IMG/VR virus record: IMGVR_UViG_3300027792_000013
Location: 51,929 to 115,928 of that record
Length of the DNA stretch: 64,000 nucleotides
Reading direction: 5' to 3' (one strand)
From: a virus
Shown: in pieces, positions 27,041 through 52,386 of the stretch
How positions within the stretch are numbered: position 1 is the stretch's first letter
How the letters are laid out: the number at the start of each line of letters is the position of its first letter
Position numbers and translations under genes: made by a program
Notes under the pieces: model-generated
Seen by the model: the letters and a program-made list of their open reading frames with translations, nothing else
Database searches by the model: none
What the model was told of the DNA's origin: nothing

Positions 27041-27562
27041 TTAGTCAGTAAAATCGAATGTTGAATAAAGCAAAGTGGCATCACAAAATAGGGTATCAGG
27101 ATCAACTCTAGTAGAAAATCCTAGATTTGATAAATTTTTTACCCAGCATTGATGAAAAGCAATTTTACTAACTATATTTTTTTTATTTGAAAGCAAATAA
27201 AGAACACCTTCGGAAGTGTCAGTTTGATTTCTTAAATGTAACATAGCATCAATTGTTAACTGTTGATTTTCTGGAAGTGGAGAAAAATCTTTATTAGCTA
27301 ACATCCATCTAAACAAGTTGATATAATTACTTAGATTTTCATCAACCACAAAAGTAAATCTAAGTTCACCGAAATCAATACTAGTCCCTGGTTCTCTTTC
27401 CGTATAGAATGGATTCTGTTTATTAATTACACCAATACTAACATCTGGTATTGTGGTATCAACTATCATATATGAAAAGTCAGGAAACTTTTCTAAAGTA
27501 AAAAAGAAGTTCGTGGGATTCGTATGATTTAATATTAAATGTTCAGCGGTTTGATATATCAT
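27041..27562 (-). CDS. gp3: gp3-like tail tube terminator (tube-fold protein)
   Basis: NFFFTLEKFP, PG.SIDFGEL.FTFVVDENLSNY..LFRWM. Confidence 0.78.
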   Translation of the reverse strand: MIYQTAEHLILNHTNPTNFFFTLEKFPDFSYMIVDTTIPDVSIGVINKQNPFYTEREPGTSIDFGELRFTFVVDENLSNYINLFRWMLANKDFSPLPENQQLTIDAMLHLRNQTDTSEGVLYLLSNKKNIVSKIAFHQCWVKNLSNLGFSTRVDPDTLFCDATLLYSTFDFTD

Positions 27563-29171: not shown

Positions 29172-29999
29172 TTATAATCTTCTTCTTGGTCTTCTCATTT
29201 TTATTTTTTTCGGTCTAATTGGTTTTATTTTTTTCATTTTTGTGGTTTTCATTGCTTTGCTAACCCTCGTTTTCATTTGTTTTAAAGTTTCGGGTCTAGC
29301 TTTTTTAGCCTTTAATTTTCTTTTTTTAGCCTCAAAAATTCTTTTATAGATATCTTGATTTGACTCTCTTTTAAATTCTTTAATTGGAATTTTTTCTTTG
29401 ACTTCTGGAGATCGTTTTCTTTTTAATCCCCGGCTCTCTTTGATTTTAACGTTCCGTTCCTCGGTGGTTTTCATTTTCTTTCTGGTATCACGATATACTT
29501 GAGCGGCTGTAATATCTACCCACTTTGCTCCAGGAGATTTTACAAGATCTAACCATTTGCTATACGGAATTTCATAAACTTTTCTGCCCATATGTGATGA
29601 CAAATATCGTTTTATTATTGCCAACCCTTCTTGGCTAAAAATTTTATATGCACTTTTTATATCGGAATATGGAAGATTTATTGGTGAATTTTTTTTAACA
29701 GCTTTTTGATTTGTTACAATAATTTTTTTGATAAAATATTCTCTAGTTCTGGGTGGTAAATAATGAAGGTTTAATCCTAACCAACCTCTAGATTTTCCTG
29801 CGGGGTATAATCCAATACAAAGACTTAATGGATGGGCATCATACCAAGGAAGTCTCCTTGGGGTTTCATGATACAATTTTGAAGTATAATCGAACGTATA
29901 TAGTTTTCCTATTTGAATTTTTATAGCTCTGGTAGTTTGAAATTGCTGAACAAACTGTTGCCAAAATTTTTCTTGTTGTGGTGAAATAACATTTGCCAT
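29172..29999 (-). CDS. gp2: gp2 DNA end protector with long basic C-terminal tail
   Basis: GKLYTFDY, LPWYD.HPL, LGLNLHYLPP, IKRYL.SH. Confidence 0.85.
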   Translation of the reverse strand: MANVISPQQEKFWQQFVQQFQTTRAIKIQIGKLYTFDYTSKLYHETPRRLPWYDAHPLSLCIGLYPAGKSRGWLGLNLHYLPPRTREYFIKKIIVTNQKAVKKNSPINLPYSDIKSAYKIFSQEGLAIIKRYLSSHMGRKVYEIPYSKWLDLVKSPGAKWVDITAAQVYRDTRKKMKTTEERNVKIKESRGLKRKRSPEVKEKIPIKEFKRESNQDIYKRIFEAKKRKLKAKKARPETLKQMKTRVSKAMKTTKMKKIKPIRPKKIKMRRPRRRL

Positions 30000-32350
30000 T
30001 ATTCTGGAATCCCAAATAATAATGATTTTACATTCATTAGAATCGATAGATCATCTATAGTGATTCTTCGATCTTCAGAATTCATAATTTGTTGCATAAC
30101 TATTGGAGATCCTGGTGGCTGTGTTGGTTGACTCCGAGTACCCATATAAGCATCCCCAACCTCTTTAGGAGAATCTTGTTGGTCACATTCTCGGGCTCTA
30201 GACAATCTATTAGAAACACTGGCTAATGATATTCCTTTTGGTTGAACGTGCCATGGTTCTTTTTTTCTGCCTGGCGGAGGCCTAAGGAATGGTCTGTGAA
30301 GACCATATTTTCTTAGTAATCCCATTTGATCTATTTTATTTAGATCTTCTGAATTGGCATCAAACGCCCACCCATATTCATGAAGAGATCTTCCTGGGGG
30401 GGCTGCTTTATCGGGAAATTTAGCATATAGATTTGCCTGTTCTTCTGAACTTCTAAATCCGGATGTTATTGTTAAATTTTTTCCTGTTTTGTCTTTATAT
30501 TCGGCACCAACCCCGACTAAAGCAGAATAAAGATCTGGTTGTAACCCAGATACATCAACTCTTGAATTAGCTAAATTAAATGGTTCTTGTGTTAAATCTT
30601 GTTTTTCTTCTTTTGGAATTATAGTTCGCATTTTTTCTAAATTTGTTTTTGTTTCACTTGGAGGCAAAGTTATTTGAGGTATATAAGCATCACCAATTTG
30701 ATTTATTTTGTCTTTCCATTTCGCTCCAAATTTTCCTTGTCTCATCCATTTTTCTAAATACTTTACAATATTAGCTGGTGTACTATCATCTCCAAGGGCA
30801 TCAACGACTTTAGCCCTCATTTTTGCTTCTTCGGCTTTATTGAGTCCAATTTTTGATCTAATATCTTTCCAACGTTCGACTCTTTTTCTTGTTAAAGTAG
30901 TTTCTGTATCATCTTGTAATTGGGAAATTTGAATGTCTTCTTGTTCTGAGATTTGCTTTATTTTTTTGTTGGAGTACATTCCTAGAGCTGCAATAGGGGC
31001 ACCAAGAACAGCTCCCCCGGCAATTCCACCTAATAAACTACCAACCCCACCAAATCCTGCACCAGCTCCGGTTGGAATAGCACCTTTCCCCAAAGCTTTT
31101 AATCCACCTAATAAACCCCCCGGTTTTGTTAGGGTATCAATAAAATCTGATTTTTTTTCTTTCTTTTTTTCTTTTTTATTTTTTTCTTGTTCTTCTACAA
31201 GGGCAGCAGTATTTTCGGATATTTCTTTTAAAAAGAAATCTCGGTTTTCCCAATCTTCTTTACTATTGGTTTCCTGGGACAATCTCATTTGTTGGTAGGT
31301 ATTGTCTTCTACATCTTTTAGAAGTTCTTGTGTTTGTTGAGTTTCTTGTTTAGGAGCAGAATATTTTTCTCTGATTTTTCTTTCGGTTTCCCATTCTTCA
31401 GGGGAACTAGCTTTTAAAAATTCATTTAAACCACCACCCACTTGCTCATACATTTCTTGTGATGATGGTGGTCTTATACTTTTTTTGATGGTTGGTTCAG
31501 GAGTTCCACTAATCTTTTTTTGTTGATATTTTTCTCTAATTCGTTTTTCGGTTTCCCATTCTTCAGGAGAACTCATTCTTAAAAATTCACTTAGATCACC
31601 CCCGGATTCTTCAAATAATTTGCCTATATCTGGTTTACTTTCTTTGACCGTCTTTGATTTTCTTGTTAATTCTCCAGAAGTAGTTTCGACATCTCTCATT
31701 TGGGCTGAAATCTGCTGTTTCAATCTGTATCTTCTAGTCTCATCCATTTTTCGTAGAAATTCCAATTGCTTTTCATATCGTTCTCTGGTCTTTGCTTTTT
31801 TTTCTTTGATTTTTTGAGTTAACCAAGCTCCTGCCAACATCAAACCAGGACTATCTGTTAATAATCCTAAAGCTCCGCCAAGAGTTTCCGGTAAATTTTC
31901 TTTTTTGAGTCGTTCTTTAAGTCTTCCTTTTAGTGTCTCTTCTTTTAGTTTGTATTGACCTTTTTTTATAGTGCCGCCCTTTCTTGTAAATTCTCCTTCG
32001 GCTATTTTAGTAACTTTTCCAACCAATCTTTTTATTCGTTCTTTTTCTGCTCCGGTTATTTGTTTTTGTCTGAACATGGTTTCAACAGCGTCTTGAATTC
32101 CATGTAGTTCCTTTATATAGTTTCTAACATCACTAGTTTCAACAACTGTTGTCAAACCTTCGATTATATTGTTGATTTCTTTGTAGATTTCAACTACTTC
32201 ATCTCGAACGACTTTGCCAGATTTTATATCGGAAAGAATATCTTTACTTTGTAATTTATTGGCTTTCTGAATAACAGATTCAACGAATTTTCTTTCTTCA
32301 AAAATTTTTCTTTTTTGTTTAATCTCTTGTTTTGTTATCGTATTTGGCAT
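29999..32350 (-). CDS. Putative tape-measure/baseplate hub protein with C-terminal M15 (D-Ala-D-Ala peptidase-like) domain
   Basis: Long helical region, Gly-rich hydrophobic segment, ITSGFRS..EQ..LY...AAPPGRSLHEYG.AFD...EPWH; late promoter at 32368-32375. Confidence 0.7.
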   Translation of the reverse strand: MPNTITKQEIKQKRKIFEERKFVESVIQKANKLQSKDILSDIKSGKVVRDEVVEIYKEINNIIEGLTTVVETSDVRNYIKELHGIQDAVETMFRQKQITGAEKERIKRLVGKVTKIAEGEFTRKGGTIKKGQYKLKEETLKGRLKERLKKENLPETLGGALGLLTDSPGLMLAGAWLTQKIKEKKAKTRERYEKQLEFLRKMDETRRYRLKQQISAQMRDVETTSGELTRKSKTVKESKPDIGKLFEESGGDLSEFLRMSSPEEWETEKRIREKYQQKKISGTPEPTIKKSIRPPSSQEMYEQVGGGLNEFLKASSPEEWETERKIREKYSAPKQETQQTQELLKDVEDNTYQQMRLSQETNSKEDWENRDFFLKEISENTAALVEEQEKNKKEKKKEKKSDFIDTLTKPGGLLGGLKALGKGAIPTGAGAGFGGVGSLLGGIAGGAVLGAPIAALGMYSNKKIKQISEQEDIQISQLQDDTETTLTRKRVERWKDIRSKIGLNKAEEAKMRAKVVDALGDDSTPANIVKYLEKWMRQGKFGAKWKDKINQIGDAYIPQITLPPSETKTNLEKMRTIIPKEEKQDLTQEPFNLANSRVDVSGLQPDLYSALVGVGAEYKDKTGKNLTITSGFRSSEEQANLYAKFPDKAAPPGRSLHEYGWAFDANSEDLNKIDQMGLLRKYGLHRPFLRPPPGRKKEPWHVQPKGISLASVSNRLSRARECDQQDSPKEVGDAYMGTRSQPTQPPGSPIVMQQIMNSEDRRITIDDLSILMNVKSLLFGIPE

Positions 32351-32382: not shown

Positions 32383-32562
32383 CTACTTTTTACCTCTTTT
32401 CTTTTTTTCTAATTCAGCTATATGTACATCAACAAAAATGTCGAATAGATAAGGTGGTAAATTAACTATTTCAGAAAAATTAAAAGGAAATCTTTGCAAA
32501 GTCAACGAATAATAAATATCTTGTATATGAGAAATACTATTGCTATAATGAACTATGTTGCT
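32383..32562 (-). CDS. gp51-like C-terminal extension, probably reached by -1 frameshift from gp26 (59 aa, no ATG/GTG)
   Basis: SNIVHYSNSISHIQDIYYSLTLQRFPFNFSEIVNLPPYLFDIFVDVHIAELEKKKRGKK*; frame opens just before TTTTTTA at 32562-32568. Confidence 0.65.
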   Translation of the reverse strand, partial: SNIVHYSNSISHIQDIYYSLTLQRFPFNFSEIVNLPPYLFDIFVDVHIAELEKKKRGKK

Positions 32563-33287
32563 AAAAAAAGTATAGGATCTCCTGTTCTAAAGTGGATTTC
32601 ACTTTTACATTCTGGACAATTCCAAGTAAAATCCATTACAATTTTAGGTTCTTTTTTGAACCAATCGAGAATTTTTTGATATTGTGCTTCATTCAGATCA
32701 TCAATGAATTTCTTTTTTCCTTCGGTGTCAAGTTCAAATCTTTCATCTCCAAGCAAAACAGATCGAATATGTGATTCGAAAAGTTCAAGATTTGCAACTT
32801 TAATTGGTTTCTTCTTTTGATCTTTCAAATTTGATAAATATGAGAAATTTGAAAACATCAATTCGATTCCATATTTTTTTTGTTTATCAAAAATAATAGT
32901 AGAATCCAGAAACTTTTCACCTTCAACTGATACTATTTTTGTTAAATCGTATTCTGCCAGCTCTGAACTTTCATGTTTTTTGCATTTTTCATTTTCACAT
33001 GTCAAATCAAATTGGATTAAACTACCCTTTGACATCAAACGCAGATTGTACATGAGCCATGCGATTTCAACAAATGGAAGATCATCTACAATTGTTGGCG
33101 TCTTAAATTTTACTGTATTTTTGATTACCTGTACTACCGCCAAATATAGATCCGAACTGGAATCACTGTCAGCACCCATCAATAAAATTCTTTCTTCTCC
33201 CATTCTGTAAGGTCTAATAGAAACTGTTTCTCTTTTTGTAAGCAATTCTACTTGCTTTTCTTCGACTGGTATTTCCCATGGATTCAT
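32553..33287 (-). CDS. gp26: gp26-like baseplate hub / tail assembly chaperone (start MNPWEIP)
   Basis: IRPYRMGEERILL, LPFVEI.WL..NLRLMSKG, CENEKC...CPEC; AAGGAG RBS before Met at 33287. Confidence 0.82.
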   Translation of the reverse strand: MNPWEIPVEEKQVELLTKRETVSIRPYRMGEERILLMGADSDSSSDLYLAVVQVIKNTVKFKTPTIVDDLPFVEIAWLMYNLRLMSKGSLIQFDLTCENEKCKKHESSELAEYDLTKIVSVEGEKFLDSTIIFDKQKKYGIELMFSNFSYLSNLKDQKKKPIKVANLELFESHIRSVLLGDERFELDTEGKKKFIDDLNEAQYQKILDWFKKEPKIVMDFTWNCPECKSEIHFRTGDPILFLAT

Positions 33288-33297
33288 TTTTTTCTCC

Positions 33298-33465
33298 TTA
33301 TCGATGCCATGAAATTGAATATTCACCGCACGTTGAGCATTCTGATACTTGAACATTAAAAGGAATATTTGGGTCATCATCCTCAACAAATTCGTGCCCA
33401 CTTATTGGACACATATGACGAAATGATAACCATAAACCGCGAATAAAACATATAAGTTTCATCAT
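33298..33465 (-). CDS. Small Cys/His protein (55 aa, MMKLICFIRG...CSTCGEYSISWHR), not in the ORF track
   Basis: GGAGG RBS; fills the gap exactly. Confidence 0.55.
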   Translation of the reverse strand: MMKLICFIRGLWLSFRHMCPISGHEFVEDDDPNIPFNVQVSECSTCGEYSISWHR

Positions 33466-33741: not shown

Positions 33742-34012
33742 TAGTACGAAAATCTTTTAAAATTTCTTCTTGTATATCATAAACTTCTGTTGAATTGTCC
33801 TCAAATTCTGGGAAAAGAGATGCTATTTGTCGCCGTATATTTAATTGTCCAGTACTTTTTCTACCGTTTATTGCTGCAATAAAAATCTTTGTTTCTATAA
33901 TTTTAATTATGTCATTTTCGGGATTGAGTGTTGATTGGAAACTTATTTTCTTTGCGATATCTGGTGTTATGTACATTTTTTTACTCCTTTTTGTTACCGC
34001 ATTCAACTTCAA
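33674..34012 (-). CDS. Hypothetical protein
   Basis: Likely start MYITP with AAGGAG RBS. Confidence 0.55.
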   Translation of the reverse strand: MKLNAVTKRSKKMYITPDIAKKISFQSTLNPENDIIKIIETKIFIAAINGRKSTGQLNIRRQIASLFPEFEDNSTEVYDIQEEILKDFRTIGFETEFFDGEPSISWEKNEKL

Positions 34013-34295
34013 AACTAAAGTTGATAAATTCGCTATTAATGGATGCTGTACGTTGAATATAGATATCTATAGCAAATTTGCCCAATTTAATCATATCAAG
34101 AGTATTGTTACTTTCATCACATATAACACTATGGCCGAATATTATGTTTGCGTATTTTAATAAATTTAATTCCAATTCAATCTTTGTTTTAATCCAACTC
34201 CTATGAATTTCATCGTTGGGTTTAAAAATCAATTTTTCAATTATCGGTTCTGTAATTTTCTTTATTTTTGTTATTAATTCTTCTTTAGTTATCAT
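33981..34295 (-). CDS. Stand-alone tail-sheath C-terminal-domain-like protein
   Basis: IFKPNDE..R, VICDESNNT...I..G.F.IDIYI resembles the gp18 C-terminus in this window (VCDTTNNTPYIIDNNAFVGDIYIKP). Confidence 0.6.
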   Translation of the reverse strand: MITKEELITKIKKITEPIIEKLIFKPNDEIHRSWIKTKIELELNLLKYANIIFGHSVICDESNNTLDMIKLGKFAIDIYIQRTASINSEFINFSFEVECGNKKE

Positions 34296-34341: not shown

Positions 34342-34611
34342 CTATTGTTCTGGCACGTAGTTCGCCGGATCGCCAGCAACATAAGCGTTTTTTCCCAATG
34401 CTGCCATTAATGCACCCAAAAAACCACAAAGCAGCATCGTCTTTTGTTCTTCATCGCCTCTATAATATGCGTCATAAAACAATTTTCGCTCGGTTTCGGA
34501 TGCCAATAATTCCGGATTACAACACGAAAAATCTGGACAACATTGACCTGATTCATAATCATGCCGCGAAGTACCCTTTAACCACAATTCTAGTTGTTTT
34601 TTTTGAGTCAC
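34342..34611 (-). CDS. Hypothetical protein with CCPDFSCC motif
   Basis: Higher-GC ORF directly downstream of the structured RNA island. Confidence 0.6.
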   Translation of the reverse strand: MTQKKQLELWLKGTSRHDYESGQCCPDFSCCNPELLASETERKLFYDAYYRGDEEQKTMLLCGFLGALMAALGKNAYVAGDPANYVPEQ

Positions 34612-34630
34612 AATTTACCCCTTAAAAAAA

Positions 34631-34770
34631 GGCCAGCGGGCCGGTCGCTACTCCGGCTTGCTCCGGTTGCCGACAACCGTAAGTCGCATATGCTGCGTAA
34701 TGTGGGTAAGTCGGTGTACCTAATCTCCGCAGCGAAGGCGTGTCCGCGATTTTCCACGCCGCCGCTGGCC
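34631..34770 (-). ncRNA. Putative tRNA-like structured RNA, unit B
   Basis: 9-bp closing stem GGCCAGCGG/CCGCTGGCC with internal stems GGCGTG/CACGCC, GCTGCG/CGCAGC, GGTTG/CAACC, GCCGG/CCGGC, followed by T7. Confidence 0.6.
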
Positions 34771-34781
34771 GTATTATTGCT

Positions 34782-34869
34782 TATGGACAGAGGGCCGGTG
34801 TTCTTAGCGCGCTCCAACCGGCGGTTCCATTTGGTTTTAGTACCCCGGATTGCTCCGCCTCTGTCCATA
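34782..34869 (-). ncRNA. Putative tRNA-like structured RNA, unit A
   Basis: 12-bp closing stem TATGGACAGAGG/CCTCTGTCCATA, CGGA-GCAA-TCCG GNRA hairpin, GCCGGT/ACCGGC arm abutting the closing stem. Confidence 0.55.
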
Positions 34870-34943
34870 TTATTGCGGGGGCCGGGCCTGTCAATTCTTT
34901 TGATTTCATCTTCTACAGAGTTAATTAATTCACTCATGACTAA

Positions 34944-34971
34944 ATTATAAAGTAGAACAGAAAAAAACTTA
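34944..34971 (-). promoter_or_regulatory. AAGTT-N16-TATAAT promoter upstream of the GC-rich RNA island
   Basis: TTAAGTT tttttctgttctactt TATAAT. Confidence 0.68.
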
Positions 34972-35229: not shown

Positions 35230-35733
35230 TTATTCCCAAGTTACATATAAAAAATTGACAGTGAATTCCAAAGGTTGATTGGTAAGATCCCAATTCAATG
35301 GAACTTCGGAAACCTCTTCCGGAATACAATCCTTGAACGTAATTGTTCTTATAGTTTGCATTGATCTATTATAGACATCAACTATTACATCGGATTTAAC
35401 GTTATCGAAAAAATCAACAGTCAATGTTTTTTTCGAATAAATTGCGTCAAACCATTTGCTAAACCCATTCCATACTTTAAACTCAGAATCAGAGAAAAAT
35501 GTTACTGGTAACAAACTGAAATTTAATCCACTTGGAACATTCAGTTTTAAACCATAATATGAGTACCCAGAAGAATTTAATTTTTGGCTTGGGAGTACTG
35601 CCCCTTTTGCAAAAAAGGTGCATCCAAATCTTCCCATATCTCCAAAATATTTTTGACCATTTGAAACAGTGACCTTGAACTTATTTGTTACCGCTACATC
35701 TTTGAATTGTGATTTAAATTGTTCAAGGTTCAT
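35230..35733 (-). CDS. Tail tube-like paralog (gp19/gp54 fold)
   Basis: Similar to the adjacent gp19 (NKFKV, KGAVLP, L.WD....P.EF.V.F.Y..W). Confidence 0.75.
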   Translation of the reverse strand: MNLEQFKSQFKDVAVTNKFKVTVSNGQKYFGDMGRFGCTFFAKGAVLPSQKLNSSGYSYYGLKLNVPSGLNFSLLPVTFFSDSEFKVWNGFSKWFDAIYSKKTLTVDFFDNVKSDVIVDVYNRSMQTIRTITFKDCIPEEVSEVPLNWDLTNQPLEFTVNFLYVTWE

Positions 35734-36245
35734 TATTTTGTGGTGTCACTTGTCCAATAATCATACTTAAATGTTACTGAATATTCTTCTGGAGTATCCG
35801 TTGTATCCCAAGATAAATTGATTACATCACCACAGTTTTGTGGATATGCCCCTACGATAGTATATGATTTCAAAATTTCCTGTTTACTACCTAATTGAAC
35901 TACAAGAAGATCTCGTTTTACCTCTTGAAGTAAACTAAATCCGATATTTTGTTTTGTATTATTTATTAGCTCGCCCCATTCTTCTAGTTTTCGTCGAATT
36001 GTATATCCGATGTCATTATATACATGTACCGTCCAATCTTCATAGTCAGGATCTCCAGGAATTTGAACTTTTCTACCCATAAAACTCATTGCAAATCCCC
36101 CATTACTTTTCGTGGGAATAGAAGCCCCTTTGCAATGAAAACTATGATTCAGTGGGGTTCCTGTTGGAAATTGAAGAGTAACTAGAAATAACGTCGGTCT
36201 AGCGACGTTACCAAACATCGCTTTATATCCTTCAATACTTAGCAT
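35733..36245 (-). CDS. gp19: gp19 tail tube protein
   Basis: ARPTLF, FMGRKVQIPGD..YEDWTV..YND, GAYP, LSWD, YSVTFKYDYW. Confidence 0.92.
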   Translation of the reverse strand: MLSIEGYKAMFGNVARPTLFLVTLQFPTGTPLNHSFHCKGASIPTKSNGGFAMSFMGRKVQIPGDPDYEDWTVHVYNDIGYTIRRKLEEWGELINNTKQNIGFSLLQEVKRDLLVVQLGSKQEILKSYTIVGAYPQNCGDVINLSWDTTDTPEEYSVTFKYDYWTSDTTK

Positions 36246-40036: not shown

Positions 40037-41713
40037 CTAGACCGCGGTCTTTAATATCTCTTCGAAACTAACACTTGATGCAACTGCGTTGAAGTTCAGC
40101 TGAATAAATTCAGCTGCCCTAACCGGCTTGATGTAGATGTCACCGACAAAGGCATTATTGTCTATGATATAAGGTGTATTGTTTGTGGTGTCACAAACAG
40201 TAAAGAAATCATAGATTCCACCTTTACCTTTTACGTATTCCAAAAATGGATCCACCATTAGTTTGAACATTGACCTTGTGAACTCATCATTGTTTTGAAA
40301 CAGAAAAGATCTTGATGCTGTGGCTATTGACTTTTCTAAGAGAATGAATAATCTACGTACATTGATTCTATTGAATGCACTATCTAGACTCAACAATGTT
40401 TTTTGTCCCCAGATCATATTACCTTCACTTGGGAAACTTACTATTGGATTGATACCATTTTTGTACAAAGTATCTCTTTGAGTTTTGTTTGGGATAATAG
40501 CAAATTTCAAAACATTTCTGAATTGGCCATTGCTATATCCCGCGGGTGCTTTCCAGACTTCATCGTAATAATCCGTTCTGCTAAAACATCCGGCTATATC
40601 GCCGCTTACAGGAACCCAACGTTGAATGTCGCTGTACTTATCATATATTCTTTTCCAGTTAGCATATAAAGCACCATAACTCGTATTTTTATTCAAAGTC
40701 GAGTTTCTATAGGAAACACAATTACTAATTGCGGTTGAAGTATCAACCGCAAAAATCTCCGATGAAGGAACTGTATTTACTGAAAAACAATCTAATCTAT
40801 TTGCGGCAATATCGATAATATAACTTTGAATTATTGAATTGCAATTGCCTCCATCCATCAAAATTGAAACATCGAATTCTTCTGAGTTTGCAAATAAGTC
40901 ATATCCGGTTTGAATATTTCCGGTAGTTGGATCACCATCCAACCCACCCGACATTCCAACTTTTTCAAAACTTGATGGTAGATTTGCATTAGAGGTATTG
41001 TCATACGCATATACCCAAGCAGATCTATCATTCAAAACATTTTCGATATACTTTGAGCGACCCGTAGCATCTTTAGCGTCTGGATCTAGTGATACTATCC
41101 ATTTTTCCTGAATTAGCCAATTATCATCTAACCAATTTTTTACGAGAATCGCAACAGCAATTTCATTTTGTGCTTCGGTTGCCCCGGCACTAGGGGCAAA
41201 TTCAAATTCGTCTTCAAAACTAACACCACTTTCAATTTCAGCAGTTGCAAAATCGGCCACGTTACAAAGAGCAATTCGAATTTTAGAATTTCCTAAATCT
41301 CCTGGGTACTTTGCAAAAAATTTTAGTTTTTCATTTGTGCTGAAAGACACTGTTGGTTGATTTGAAGAATTTGGAATGTATTCCTGTGCACCGTCGGTGG
41401 TATCACCATAGGTGTCATCGTATACAACAATTCCGGCATTTTTTGCAGCTGTTGAGTTTACGGCTCGAACAACCCACAAATTATTTGCATATCGTAAAAA
41501 TTCTGTATTGCTGAACCAATGTTCAAAATTACCGGCAACAGGTAAACCCCAAAATTCATAATTTTCTCTTTCATTGGTTGTTAATTTTCTTTCAAAACAA
41601 GGTCCCCATTTTGCCTTGATTACATTACCAACAATTGATGTTGCGATAATTGGAACCGTTGTAGTGAAATCAAACTCCCTCACCTGAACACTCGGACTTA
41701 GCGAAAAAGACAT
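40037..41713 (-). CDS. gp18: gp18 tail sheath
   Basis: MSFSLSPSVQVREFD, WGP, YDKYSD..RWVP.SGDIAG, APAG, SAFNRINVRRLF, IYIKPVR. Confidence 0.96.
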   Translation of the reverse strand: MSFSLSPSVQVREFDFTTTVPIIATSIVGNVIKAKWGPCFERKLTTNERENYEFWGLPVAGNFEHWFSNTEFLRYANNLWVVRAVNSTAAKNAGIVVYDDTYGDTTDGAQEYIPNSSNQPTVSFSTNEKLKFFAKYPGDLGNSKIRIALCNVADFATAEIESGVSFEDEFEFAPSAGATEAQNEIAVAILVKNWLDDNWLIQEKWIVSLDPDAKDATGRSKYIENVLNDRSAWVYAYDNTSNANLPSSFEKVGMSGGLDGDPTTGNIQTGYDLFANSEEFDVSILMDGGNCNSIIQSYIIDIAANRLDCFSVNTVPSSEIFAVDTSTAISNCVSYRNSTLNKNTSYGALYANWKRIYDKYSDIQRWVPVSGDIAGCFSRTDYYDEVWKAPAGYSNGQFRNVLKFAIIPNKTQRDTLYKNGINPIVSFPSEGNMIWGQKTLLSLDSAFNRINVRRLFILLEKSIATASRSFLFQNNDEFTRSMFKLMVDPFLEYVKGKGGIYDFFTVCDTTNNTPYIIDNNAFVGDIYIKPVRAAEFIQLNFNAVASSVSFEEILKTAV

Positions 41714-51763: not shown

Positions 51764-52386
51764 CCAAATGGGTCCGTTTCAGAGTCATCAATTACATCAT
51801 CTTGTACAATTTCAGTTTCGAGATCTTCACTATCATCCAAGTGATCTTTTGTTGTTTCAATATTAGTAAAGCTCGCGGTTTCAAGTGTTGTTGGAACATC
51901 TTCGTGGCTATAAACCCAGGCTTTAGCTCCAATTTCCATTAAATCTAATTTGCCCAAATGGTAAAAACTTGGTTCTAAATTGATTCTAGTGATTTCATAC
52001 ATTCCATGTTCATGTTGCCATGGTAAGTACAAAAGATCACCAATTATATGTTCAATTTGTTTTGATGAATCAATGTTACCATTGGTAATAAAATCTTCTC
52101 GTGATACCGCTATTTCTAATTCGTCACGAAATTCTAACCCAAACATACCAAAATTATCACCTTCGCCATTAAATTTCAGATTTGAAATTAAATATCCTCG
52201 TACTTCGTATTTTGTGGGGAAACTTTCAAGAATGTCTTCTCCAAACATAAAGTCAAGATTTTCTGAACTTTGTTTTGGTATAAAAAAGATTTTGACTCCA
52301 TAAAAATTACAGAATTCCTTTCCTATGCCTTTGTATAGGCGAAATTCTCGATCATTAAAGAAATCAAAAATTTTTTTTGAAATCAT
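51760..52386 (-). CDS. gp14: gp14 neck protein
   Basis: YGVKIFFIPK, MFGED, F.GEGD.FGMFGLE.RDE, GDLLYLP, FYHLGK, ETDPFG. Confidence 0.9.
   Translation of the reverse strand: MISKKIFDFFNDREFRLYKGIGKEFCNFYGVKIFFIPKQSSENLDFMFGEDILESFPTKYEVRGYLISNLKFNGEGDNFGMFGLEFRDELEIAVSREDFITNGNIDSSKQIEHIIGDLLYLPWQHEHGMYEITRINLEPSFYHLGKLDLMEIGAKAWVYSHEDVPTTLETASFTNIETTKDHLDDSEDLETEIVQDDVIDDSETDPFG

Follow-up and report, generated by a model that had tools for sequence, protein, structure and literature searches.

A gp26-family chaperone gene of a T4-like virus with a probable −1 ribosomal frameshift of the lambda G/GT type

In phage lambda, the tail chaperone genes G and T yield gpG and, by a −1 ribosomal frameshift that is conserved in such chaperone genes, gpGT (Levin 1993; Xu, Hendrix & Duda 2004, 2013, 2014, cited in PMC5009743). 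This G-T frameshift is said to be conserved in long-tailed phages “except T4” (Atkins 2016, PMC5009743). The T4 proteins gp26 and gp51 are listed as hub assembly chaperones, with gp51 essential and of unknown function (Leiman 2010, PMC3004832), and gp51 is reported to be absent from particles (PMC3004832). Among T4-like phages, gp51 has been described as “missing only in Aeh1” and, in cyanophages, as only about 20% of the T4 length (Sullivan 2010, PMC3037559). Here, we analyze a gp26-family gene in a stretch of 64,000 nucleotides from an uncultured T4-like myovirus (positions 51,929 to 115,928 of IMG/VR record IMGVR_UViG_3300027792_000013); “the window” means this whole stretch. The 3′ end of the gene carries a slippery heptamer, and a start-less, gp51-like open reading frame (ORF) follows in the −1 frame. 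From this sequence evidence, we consider it likely that the gene undergoes a programmed −1 ribosomal frameshift of the lambda G/GT type.

The elements of the locus, in window coordinates and in the order in which a ribosome would meet them, are these:

33294–33299, minus strand: Shine-Dalgarno AAGGAG of gp26, 6 nucleotides 5′ of the ATG at 33287 (read from the sequence)
33287–32553, minus strand: gp26-family gene (zero frame), 244 amino acids (PF12322 and phrog_150 matches)
32587–32589, minus strand: TAG closing the −1 frame six codons 5′ of the slip site (sequence)
32579–32582, minus strand: internal Shine-Dalgarno-like GGAG, 10 nucleotides 5′ of the heptamer (sequence)
32562–32568, minus strand: slippery heptamer U_UUU_UUA in X_XXY_YYZ phase, T(32568) TTT(32567–65) TTA(32564–62) (sequence, conservation in relatives)
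32386–32562, minus strand: −1 extension of 59 codons, the gp51-like tail, without ATG or GTG (gp51-tail profile, phrog_634)
32503–32505, minus strand: first TTG in the −1 ORF (extension codon 19), without a Shine-Dalgarno sequence; the only conceivable independent start, which would yield a 40-amino-acid peptide (sequence)
32383–32385, minus strand: TAG ending the −1 extension, 32 nucleotides before the ATG of the next gene (sequence)

The 3′ end of gp26 reads GAT CCT ATA CTT TTT TTA GCA ACA TAG. The P site of the heptamer is Phe241 and the A site Leu242, and two sense codons (Ala243 and Thr244) separate it from the gp26 stop. Because the TAG at 32589..32587 closes the −1 frame, the tail cannot be reached from further upstream. 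The −1 frame is then free of stops for 67 codons (32586..32386), 59 of which come after the slip site, and its only TTG codons are extension codons 19 and 21. The predicted fusion has 242 + 59 = 301 amino acids, with the junction ...DPILF-L/F-SNIVHY.... The first-pass annotation, made from the letters alone, had described this gp26 ending, the heptamer at 32562–32568 and its phase, and a −1 frame that is closed by a TAG upstream and then open for 59 codons without ATG or GTG; on the minus strand, all of this is correct to the base. The open run is exceptional for this DNA, as it is longer than every one of the 1868 stop-free −1-frame runs within the long ORFs of the window (median 5 codons, maximum 63).

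The likeness to lambda G/GT extends to several features. Both systems have two ORFs of which the second is start-less and lies in the −1 frame, both have a canonical heptamer a few codons before the first stop, and both pairs lie directly upstream of a long gene, which here is a probable tape measure gene. Neither needs a strong downstream structure, and the N-terminal domain of the window protein has, as described below, the predicted fold of the HK97 tail assembly chaperone. There are also clear differences. The body in the window is a 244-amino-acid PF12322 protein that includes a probable zinc ribbon, whereas gpG has roughly 100–140 amino acids, and the window pair does not resemble gpG or gpT in sequence. 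Its heptamer has the form U_UUU_UUN, as opposed to G_GGA_AAG in lambda. Unlike G/GT, the window system belongs to a T4-type baseplate-hub pathway, and its gene is not adjacent to a tube gene.

The strongest evidence for a functional slip site comes from relatives. We gathered gp26 loci from IMG/VR (with cyanophages) and from metagenomes, which gave 127 unique and 42 further loci, respectively, or 169 non-identical readable loci; the set of 127 forms about 49 clusters at 50% identity. The first-pass annotation had proposed conservation of the heptamer at gp26 3′ ends as a check, and an in-phase T_TTT_TTN is found near the gp26 stop in all of them (127/127 and 42/42), 2–10 codons before the stop and usually 3. 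Among 718 control ORFs of these loci, only 8 have the heptamer. In all complete relative loci, the heptamer is followed by a −1 ORF of 48–68 codons with the gp51 motif. In 127/127 loci, the codon ahead of the P-site codon ends in T, although this codon stands for nine different amino acids (AGT, GAT, AAT, TCT, GCT, and others). Given codon usage, this invariance has a log10 P of about −29, though such P values overstate the case, since related loci are phylogenetically non-independent. The P-site codon is likewise TTT in 127/127, and the dipeptide alternates between FF and FL, i.e., UUU UUN. These sequences indicate that the conserved slip region is constrained at its nucleotides rather than at its residues. 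The closest relative that we found (L083) has TTTTTTA as in the window, a start-less tail, and a downstream homolog of the window’s next gene (E 1e-43).

The −1 tail itself is weakly but specifically related to gp51. A hidden Markov model (HMM) of 121 gp51 tails from other phages scores the −1 segment best of the 1191 stop-to-stop segments in the window, with an E value of 0.0043 against 0.3 for the runner-up, and the aligned part corresponds to extension residues 22–56. The only PHROG match of the −1 peptide is phrog_634, “baseplate hub assembly catalyst” (gp51), at E 0.25; a Pfam search with the 60-amino-acid tail alone found no match. These two matches bear out the earlier description of the peptide as gp51-like. 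The same HMM also matches residues 206–244 of T4 gp51. On this basis, we take the −1 tail to share ancestry with the C-terminal part of T4 gp51 and with the small cyanophage “gp51”.

The zero-frame product is a clear member of the T4 gp26/gp51 family. PF12322 (T4_baseplate) matches it with an E value of 6.6e-24 and 85.2 bits (cut-off 24.5), with gp26 residues 13–230 covering profile positions 6–206 of 219, and phrog_150, “baseplate hub”, matches at E 3.2e-25. Only one PF12322 gene is present in the entire 115,928-bp record. We regard the window gp26 as a putative baseplate-hub or tape-measure assembly chaperone. It is highly divergent: its identity to other gp26 proteins does not exceed about 30%. 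A protein homology search with the window gp26 alone returned only the query itself, so there is no close relative for a test of the tail based on nonsynonymous and synonymous substitutions (dN/dS), and a related-locus search with the single protein was empty.

The protein has two parts, an N-terminal domain (residues 1–91) and a C-terminal domain with conserved C97, C224, and C227, which is probably a zinc ribbon. We compared an AlphaFold2 model of the window gp26 (116-sequence alignment, mean predicted local distance difference test score 93.4) with 48,161 PDB representatives using VIA-align. The best match is the HK97 tail assembly chaperone (2ob9_B, Z 7.8, 84 residues aligned of 104), followed by 3fgx, an uncharacterized Geobacillus protein (Z 7.4), and Bacillus subtilis YqbN (3klu_A, Z 6.7), to which no function is assigned. 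These three matches all fall on residues 1–91, and the fourth drops to Z 4.5. The lactococcal p2 tape-measure chaperone ORF12 is also among the matches (Z 2.7). The Z values are moderate, all below 8, and a Foldseek search of the model against the PDB gave nothing at E ≤ 0.001 and only a local match to 2ob9 (probability 0.47). Nevertheless, because the top matches are clear of the background and span the whole domain, the model supports an HK97 tail-assembly-chaperone fold for the N-terminal domain. This fold gives independent support to the analogy with G/GT. The first-pass annotation had proposed that gp26 and gp51 are the G/GT equivalents of this clade; the conservation of the slip site in 169/169 loci and the chaperone fold both speak for that proposal.

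How, then, does T4 compare? The window gp26 is in the same Pfam family as T4 gp26 (208 amino acids) and T4 gp51 (249 amino acids), its tail matches roughly the C-terminal 40 residues of T4 gp51, and the outcome would be the same pair of proteins, body alone and body plus tail. T4 gp51 matches PF12322 over residues 1–201 (E 3.9e-52) and the tail HMM over residues 206–244, and is thus a paralog of gp26 that carries the tail in frame, the equivalent of the window fusion. The difference lies in how the pair is made. In T4, it comes from two paralogous, divergent genes: gene 25 follows gene 26, gene 51 is divergently transcribed, and gene 26 ends ...GAG TTC TTT GAG TTA CTA TAA, in which Phe-Phe is kept and TTC TTT is not slippery. 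In the window, one gene and a frameshift would supply both proteins. The heptamer is absent in 5 of 5 T4-type phages (T4 and four other Straboviridae) that have a separate, divergent, full-length gene 51. The two-gene pair would explain why T4 is listed as an exception to the tail-chaperone frameshift. GenBank notes of Acinetobacter phage AM101 (NC_049511.1; L210) name both gp26 and gp51 “tape measure protein assembly chaperone”, so the functional idea already exists in annotation.

A closely similar gene arrangement is described in cyanophages (T4-GC 11/12; PMC3037559), with the same gene order, the same −1 relation, and an in-phase T_TTT_TTC two codons before the stop. In S-SSM7 and S-PM2, gp26 ends GA[T TTT TTC] GCC TAA and TC[T TTT TTC] GCA TAA, respectively, and is followed by a “gp51” of 57–63 amino acids in the −1 frame. 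The cyanophage records differ from the window in that they annotate gp51 as a separate gene of 57–63 amino acids, often with its own ATG. The window has neither the ATG nor a hairpin, it has UUA in the A site, and its gp26 is only 22–26% identical to the cyanophage proteins.

Cultured phages outside this group are also among the loci with this layout. In Aeromonas phage Aeh1 (AY266303.2; L209:3197-3380), gene 26 ends GA[T TTT TTC] GAC TGA, and an unannotated gap of 166 nucleotides after it is filled by a −1 ORF that has the gp51 tail motif and no start codon, which would explain why gp51 was reported missing there. Ochrobactrum phage vB_OspM_OC (MT028491.1; L207:3215-3405), a cultured, non-marine phage, has the same layout with GA[T TTT TTT] ATC TAA, and its annotated 46-amino-acid “hypothetical protein” is the gp51 tail cut at an internal GTG. 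Altogether, the arrangement is seen in cyanophages, marine and freshwater T4-like phages, Aeh1, an Ochrobactrum phage, and the window lineage. Literature searches for gp26/gp51 frameshifting found no report, and a frameshift annotation is absent from all records that we examined. On balance, we favor the broader view that T4-like phages would be no exception: gp26/gp51 would be their G/GT pair, the −1 frameshift would be widespread and probably ancestral, and only the T4 branch would have replaced it by a duplication with the tail in frame. The frameshift would be of a known tail-chaperone kind, and the window appears to hold a new form of it, the most divergent that we met.

The sequence anatomy, the homologies, the fold, and the family-wide nucleotide conservation are established; from them, we infer the slippage, its rate, and the binding partners in the following model. 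Most ribosomes would translate 33287..32553 and stop, giving the 244-amino-acid gp26. A fraction would slip back one base at U_UUU_UUA, with tRNA-Phe on UUU and tRNA-Leu on UUA, and would read 59 more codons to the TAG at 32385..32383, giving the 301-amino-acid gp26-gp51 fusion. By analogy with lambda gpG/gpGT and from T4 genetics, which places gp26 and gp51 among hub assembly chaperones that stay out of the virion, the binding partner of the shared gp26 body would be the product of the next gene, the probable tape measure protein. Only a minority of the molecules would carry the gp51 tail, which would link the gp26-tape measure complex to the hub or tube, and tail assembly would start.

The heptamer of the window is identical to the HIV-1 gag-pol slip site, U_UUU_UUA. 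In Escherichia coli dnaX, a Shine-Dalgarno-like element lies about 10 nucleotides upstream of the heptamer, and the window resembles dnaX in having GGAG 10 nucleotides upstream. This GGAG may assist slippage as a possible dnaX-type stimulator. Shine-Dalgarno-like 4-mers in the 127 relatives cluster 8–11 nucleotides upstream of the heptamer, but in most of them the 4-mers fall on conserved Glu-Gly codons, which leaves stimulation as no more than a possibility. Unlike dnaX and HIV-1 gag-pol, the window has no downstream stem-loop or pseudoknot. Strong hairpins do occur a few bases after the heptamer in S-SSM7 and S-PM2 (z −5.8 and −4.6; L001:4700-4740 and L002:4682-4730). The stem of the S-SSM7 hairpin includes the annotated gp51 ATG, and this hairpin may promote slippage and at the same time hide the start codon from independent initiation; there is no such hairpin in the window or in L083.

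The proposed partner of the chaperone is encoded immediately downstream:

29999–32350, minus strand: gene of 783 amino acids, probable tail tape measure with a VanY/M15 peptidase domain and its own Shine-Dalgarno GAGGA (Pfam, position, size)

It begins 32 bases after the −1 stop; in relatives, an ORF of 420–1216 amino acids usually abuts the gp51 stop. The VanY domain (D-Ala-D-Ala carboxypeptidase type, residues about 590–710) scores 29.8 bits, above the Pfam cut-off, and suggests that the tape measure, and not a gp5-like spike lysozyme, carries the wall-degrading activity. The HK97 tape-measure profile matches the protein at E 6.8e-4, below the cut-off, and the protein has a long Gly/Ala-rich hydrophobic stretch. 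It is the position, the size, the sub-threshold HK97 match, and the glycine-rich hydrophobic segment that make a tail tape measure the probable identity. Searches for known tape measures added little: no PDB sequence matched, the NCBIfam search gave a weak match to VanY and nothing else, and phmmer searches with the 783-amino-acid protein and T4 gp29 against the downstream proteins of relatives found only the L083 homolog. The first-pass annotation had called this gene the putative tape measure, which agrees with the four features above, but the protein has no detectable similarity to T4 gp29, and its identity stays short of proof.

This uncertain partner weighs against the frameshift, as do several other points besides the shared ancestry of the relatives. 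The heptamer by itself is weak evidence in an AT-rich genome, as an in-phase T6 occurs within the last 12 codons of 5 of the 73 window ORFs of at least 100 amino acids. RNA folding 3′ of the window heptamer shows no significant structure (z 0.05 and −0.19). The gp51 homology of the window tail is weak (12–13 bits), and the aligned portion lies downstream of a TTG. Finally, many cyanophages have a gp51 ATG, and free gp51 may also be made in them.

The same fusion could arise by transcriptional slippage, in which RNA polymerase would add one U on the run of seven T (32569..32563) and the fusion would be in frame in some messenger RNAs. Homopolymer runs are known polymerase slippage sites (Atkins 2016, PMC5009743), and seven or more T are found not only in the window but in 39 of the 127 relatives. 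However, the run is exactly six T long in most relatives (e.g., AGT TTT TTC), a short run for a slipping polymerase. The X_XXY_YYZ phase, kept in 169/169 loci, matters for slippage of tandem tRNAs and not for a polymerase. Thus, we consider this explanation improbable.

Independent initiation would give a gp51-like peptide from the TTG at 32505 (40 amino acids) or from a non-canonical codon, with no fusion. The TTG lies upstream of the part that the gp51 HMM aligns, and the cyanophage ATG offers a precedent. However, no Shine-Dalgarno sequence precedes the TTG, whereas neighboring genes have AAGGAG or GAGGA, and the −1 ORF contains no ATG or GTG. Upstream of the TTG, the frame is open for 19 codons, which takes it precisely to the slip site. 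Start-less gp51 ORFs in relatives had been put forward in the first-pass annotation as a second check: many cyanophages have the ATG, yet an ATG at the “start” position is found in only a minority of relative tails, and 45 of 122 tails have no early start (no ATG, GTG, or TTG in the first 10 codons) and all keep the heptamer. In S-SSM7, moreover, the gp51 ATG lies inside the strong hairpin. We regard independent initiation as decidedly unlikely, and a programmed −1 ribosomal frameshift remains our preferred reading. The least credible explanation is an artefact or decay: a seven-base homopolymer in a metagenome-derived viral contig could hide an error (a true run of eight T would give one fused ORF, and six T an earlier stop) or the tail could be a dead gp51 remnant, but the family as a rule has the two-frame layout in this phase (169/169 loci, drawn from many independent assemblies and from isolate genomes), a fused form of roughly 300 amino acids occurs in 0 of the 150 best representatives, and the 67-codon open run is unmatched among the 1868 −1-frame runs of the window.

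If the frameshift is real, the T4 exception to the tail-chaperone frameshift disappears, and T4 gp26 and gp51, whose roles have been obscure for decades, gain a concrete mechanism that can be tested: they would be the short and the long version of a chaperone for the tape measure. Re-annotation would be due in hundreds of phage records, including the “missing” gp51 of Aeh1, truncated “hypothetical proteins”, and free-standing 60-amino-acid “gp51” genes. Cultured systems for testing exist in Synechococcus and Prochlorococcus phages, Aeh1, and Ochrobactrum phage OC. What the window would contribute is a case that has kept the signal although the A-site codon is UUA and both the start codon and the hairpin are lacking.

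The genomic context is that of a T4-like myovirus. The 115,928-bp record, 64% complete by CheckV estimate, has genes for a tail sheath, a prohead protease, a scaffold, a gp23-like capsid protein, a gp20-like portal, and a gp2-like DNA end protector. There are three gp19-like tail-tube paralogs (phrog_45) on the minus strand (27041–27562, 35230–35733, and 35733–36245), two of which are adjacent and one of which adjoins the portal gene; presumably they are the equivalents of the tube, tube initiator, and cap. Another candidate for slippage is an in-phase AA[T TTT TTA] seven codons before the stop of the tube paralog at 35733..35230 (window 35230–35260). The −1 frame there leads into the small coiled-coil gene that comes next and that starts at its own ATG (35217) behind an AAGGAG, and this site is probably coincidental in an AT-rich genome. 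An ORF of 104 amino acids at 33981–34295 on the minus strand matches the tail sheath C-terminal domain PF17482 (E 1.1e-5, 25.9 bits, just under the 26.9-bit cut-off) and is far from the 558-amino-acid sheath gene at 41713..40037. Between the tube genes and gp26, a GC-rich island at 34400–34950 (44–53% GC, versus about 30% around it) holds two minus-strand ORFs of 89 and 109 amino acids without a Pfam match, and tRNA and Rfam searches of it were negative, the latter even at E ≤ 1; the island may be foreign DNA or a structured RNA.

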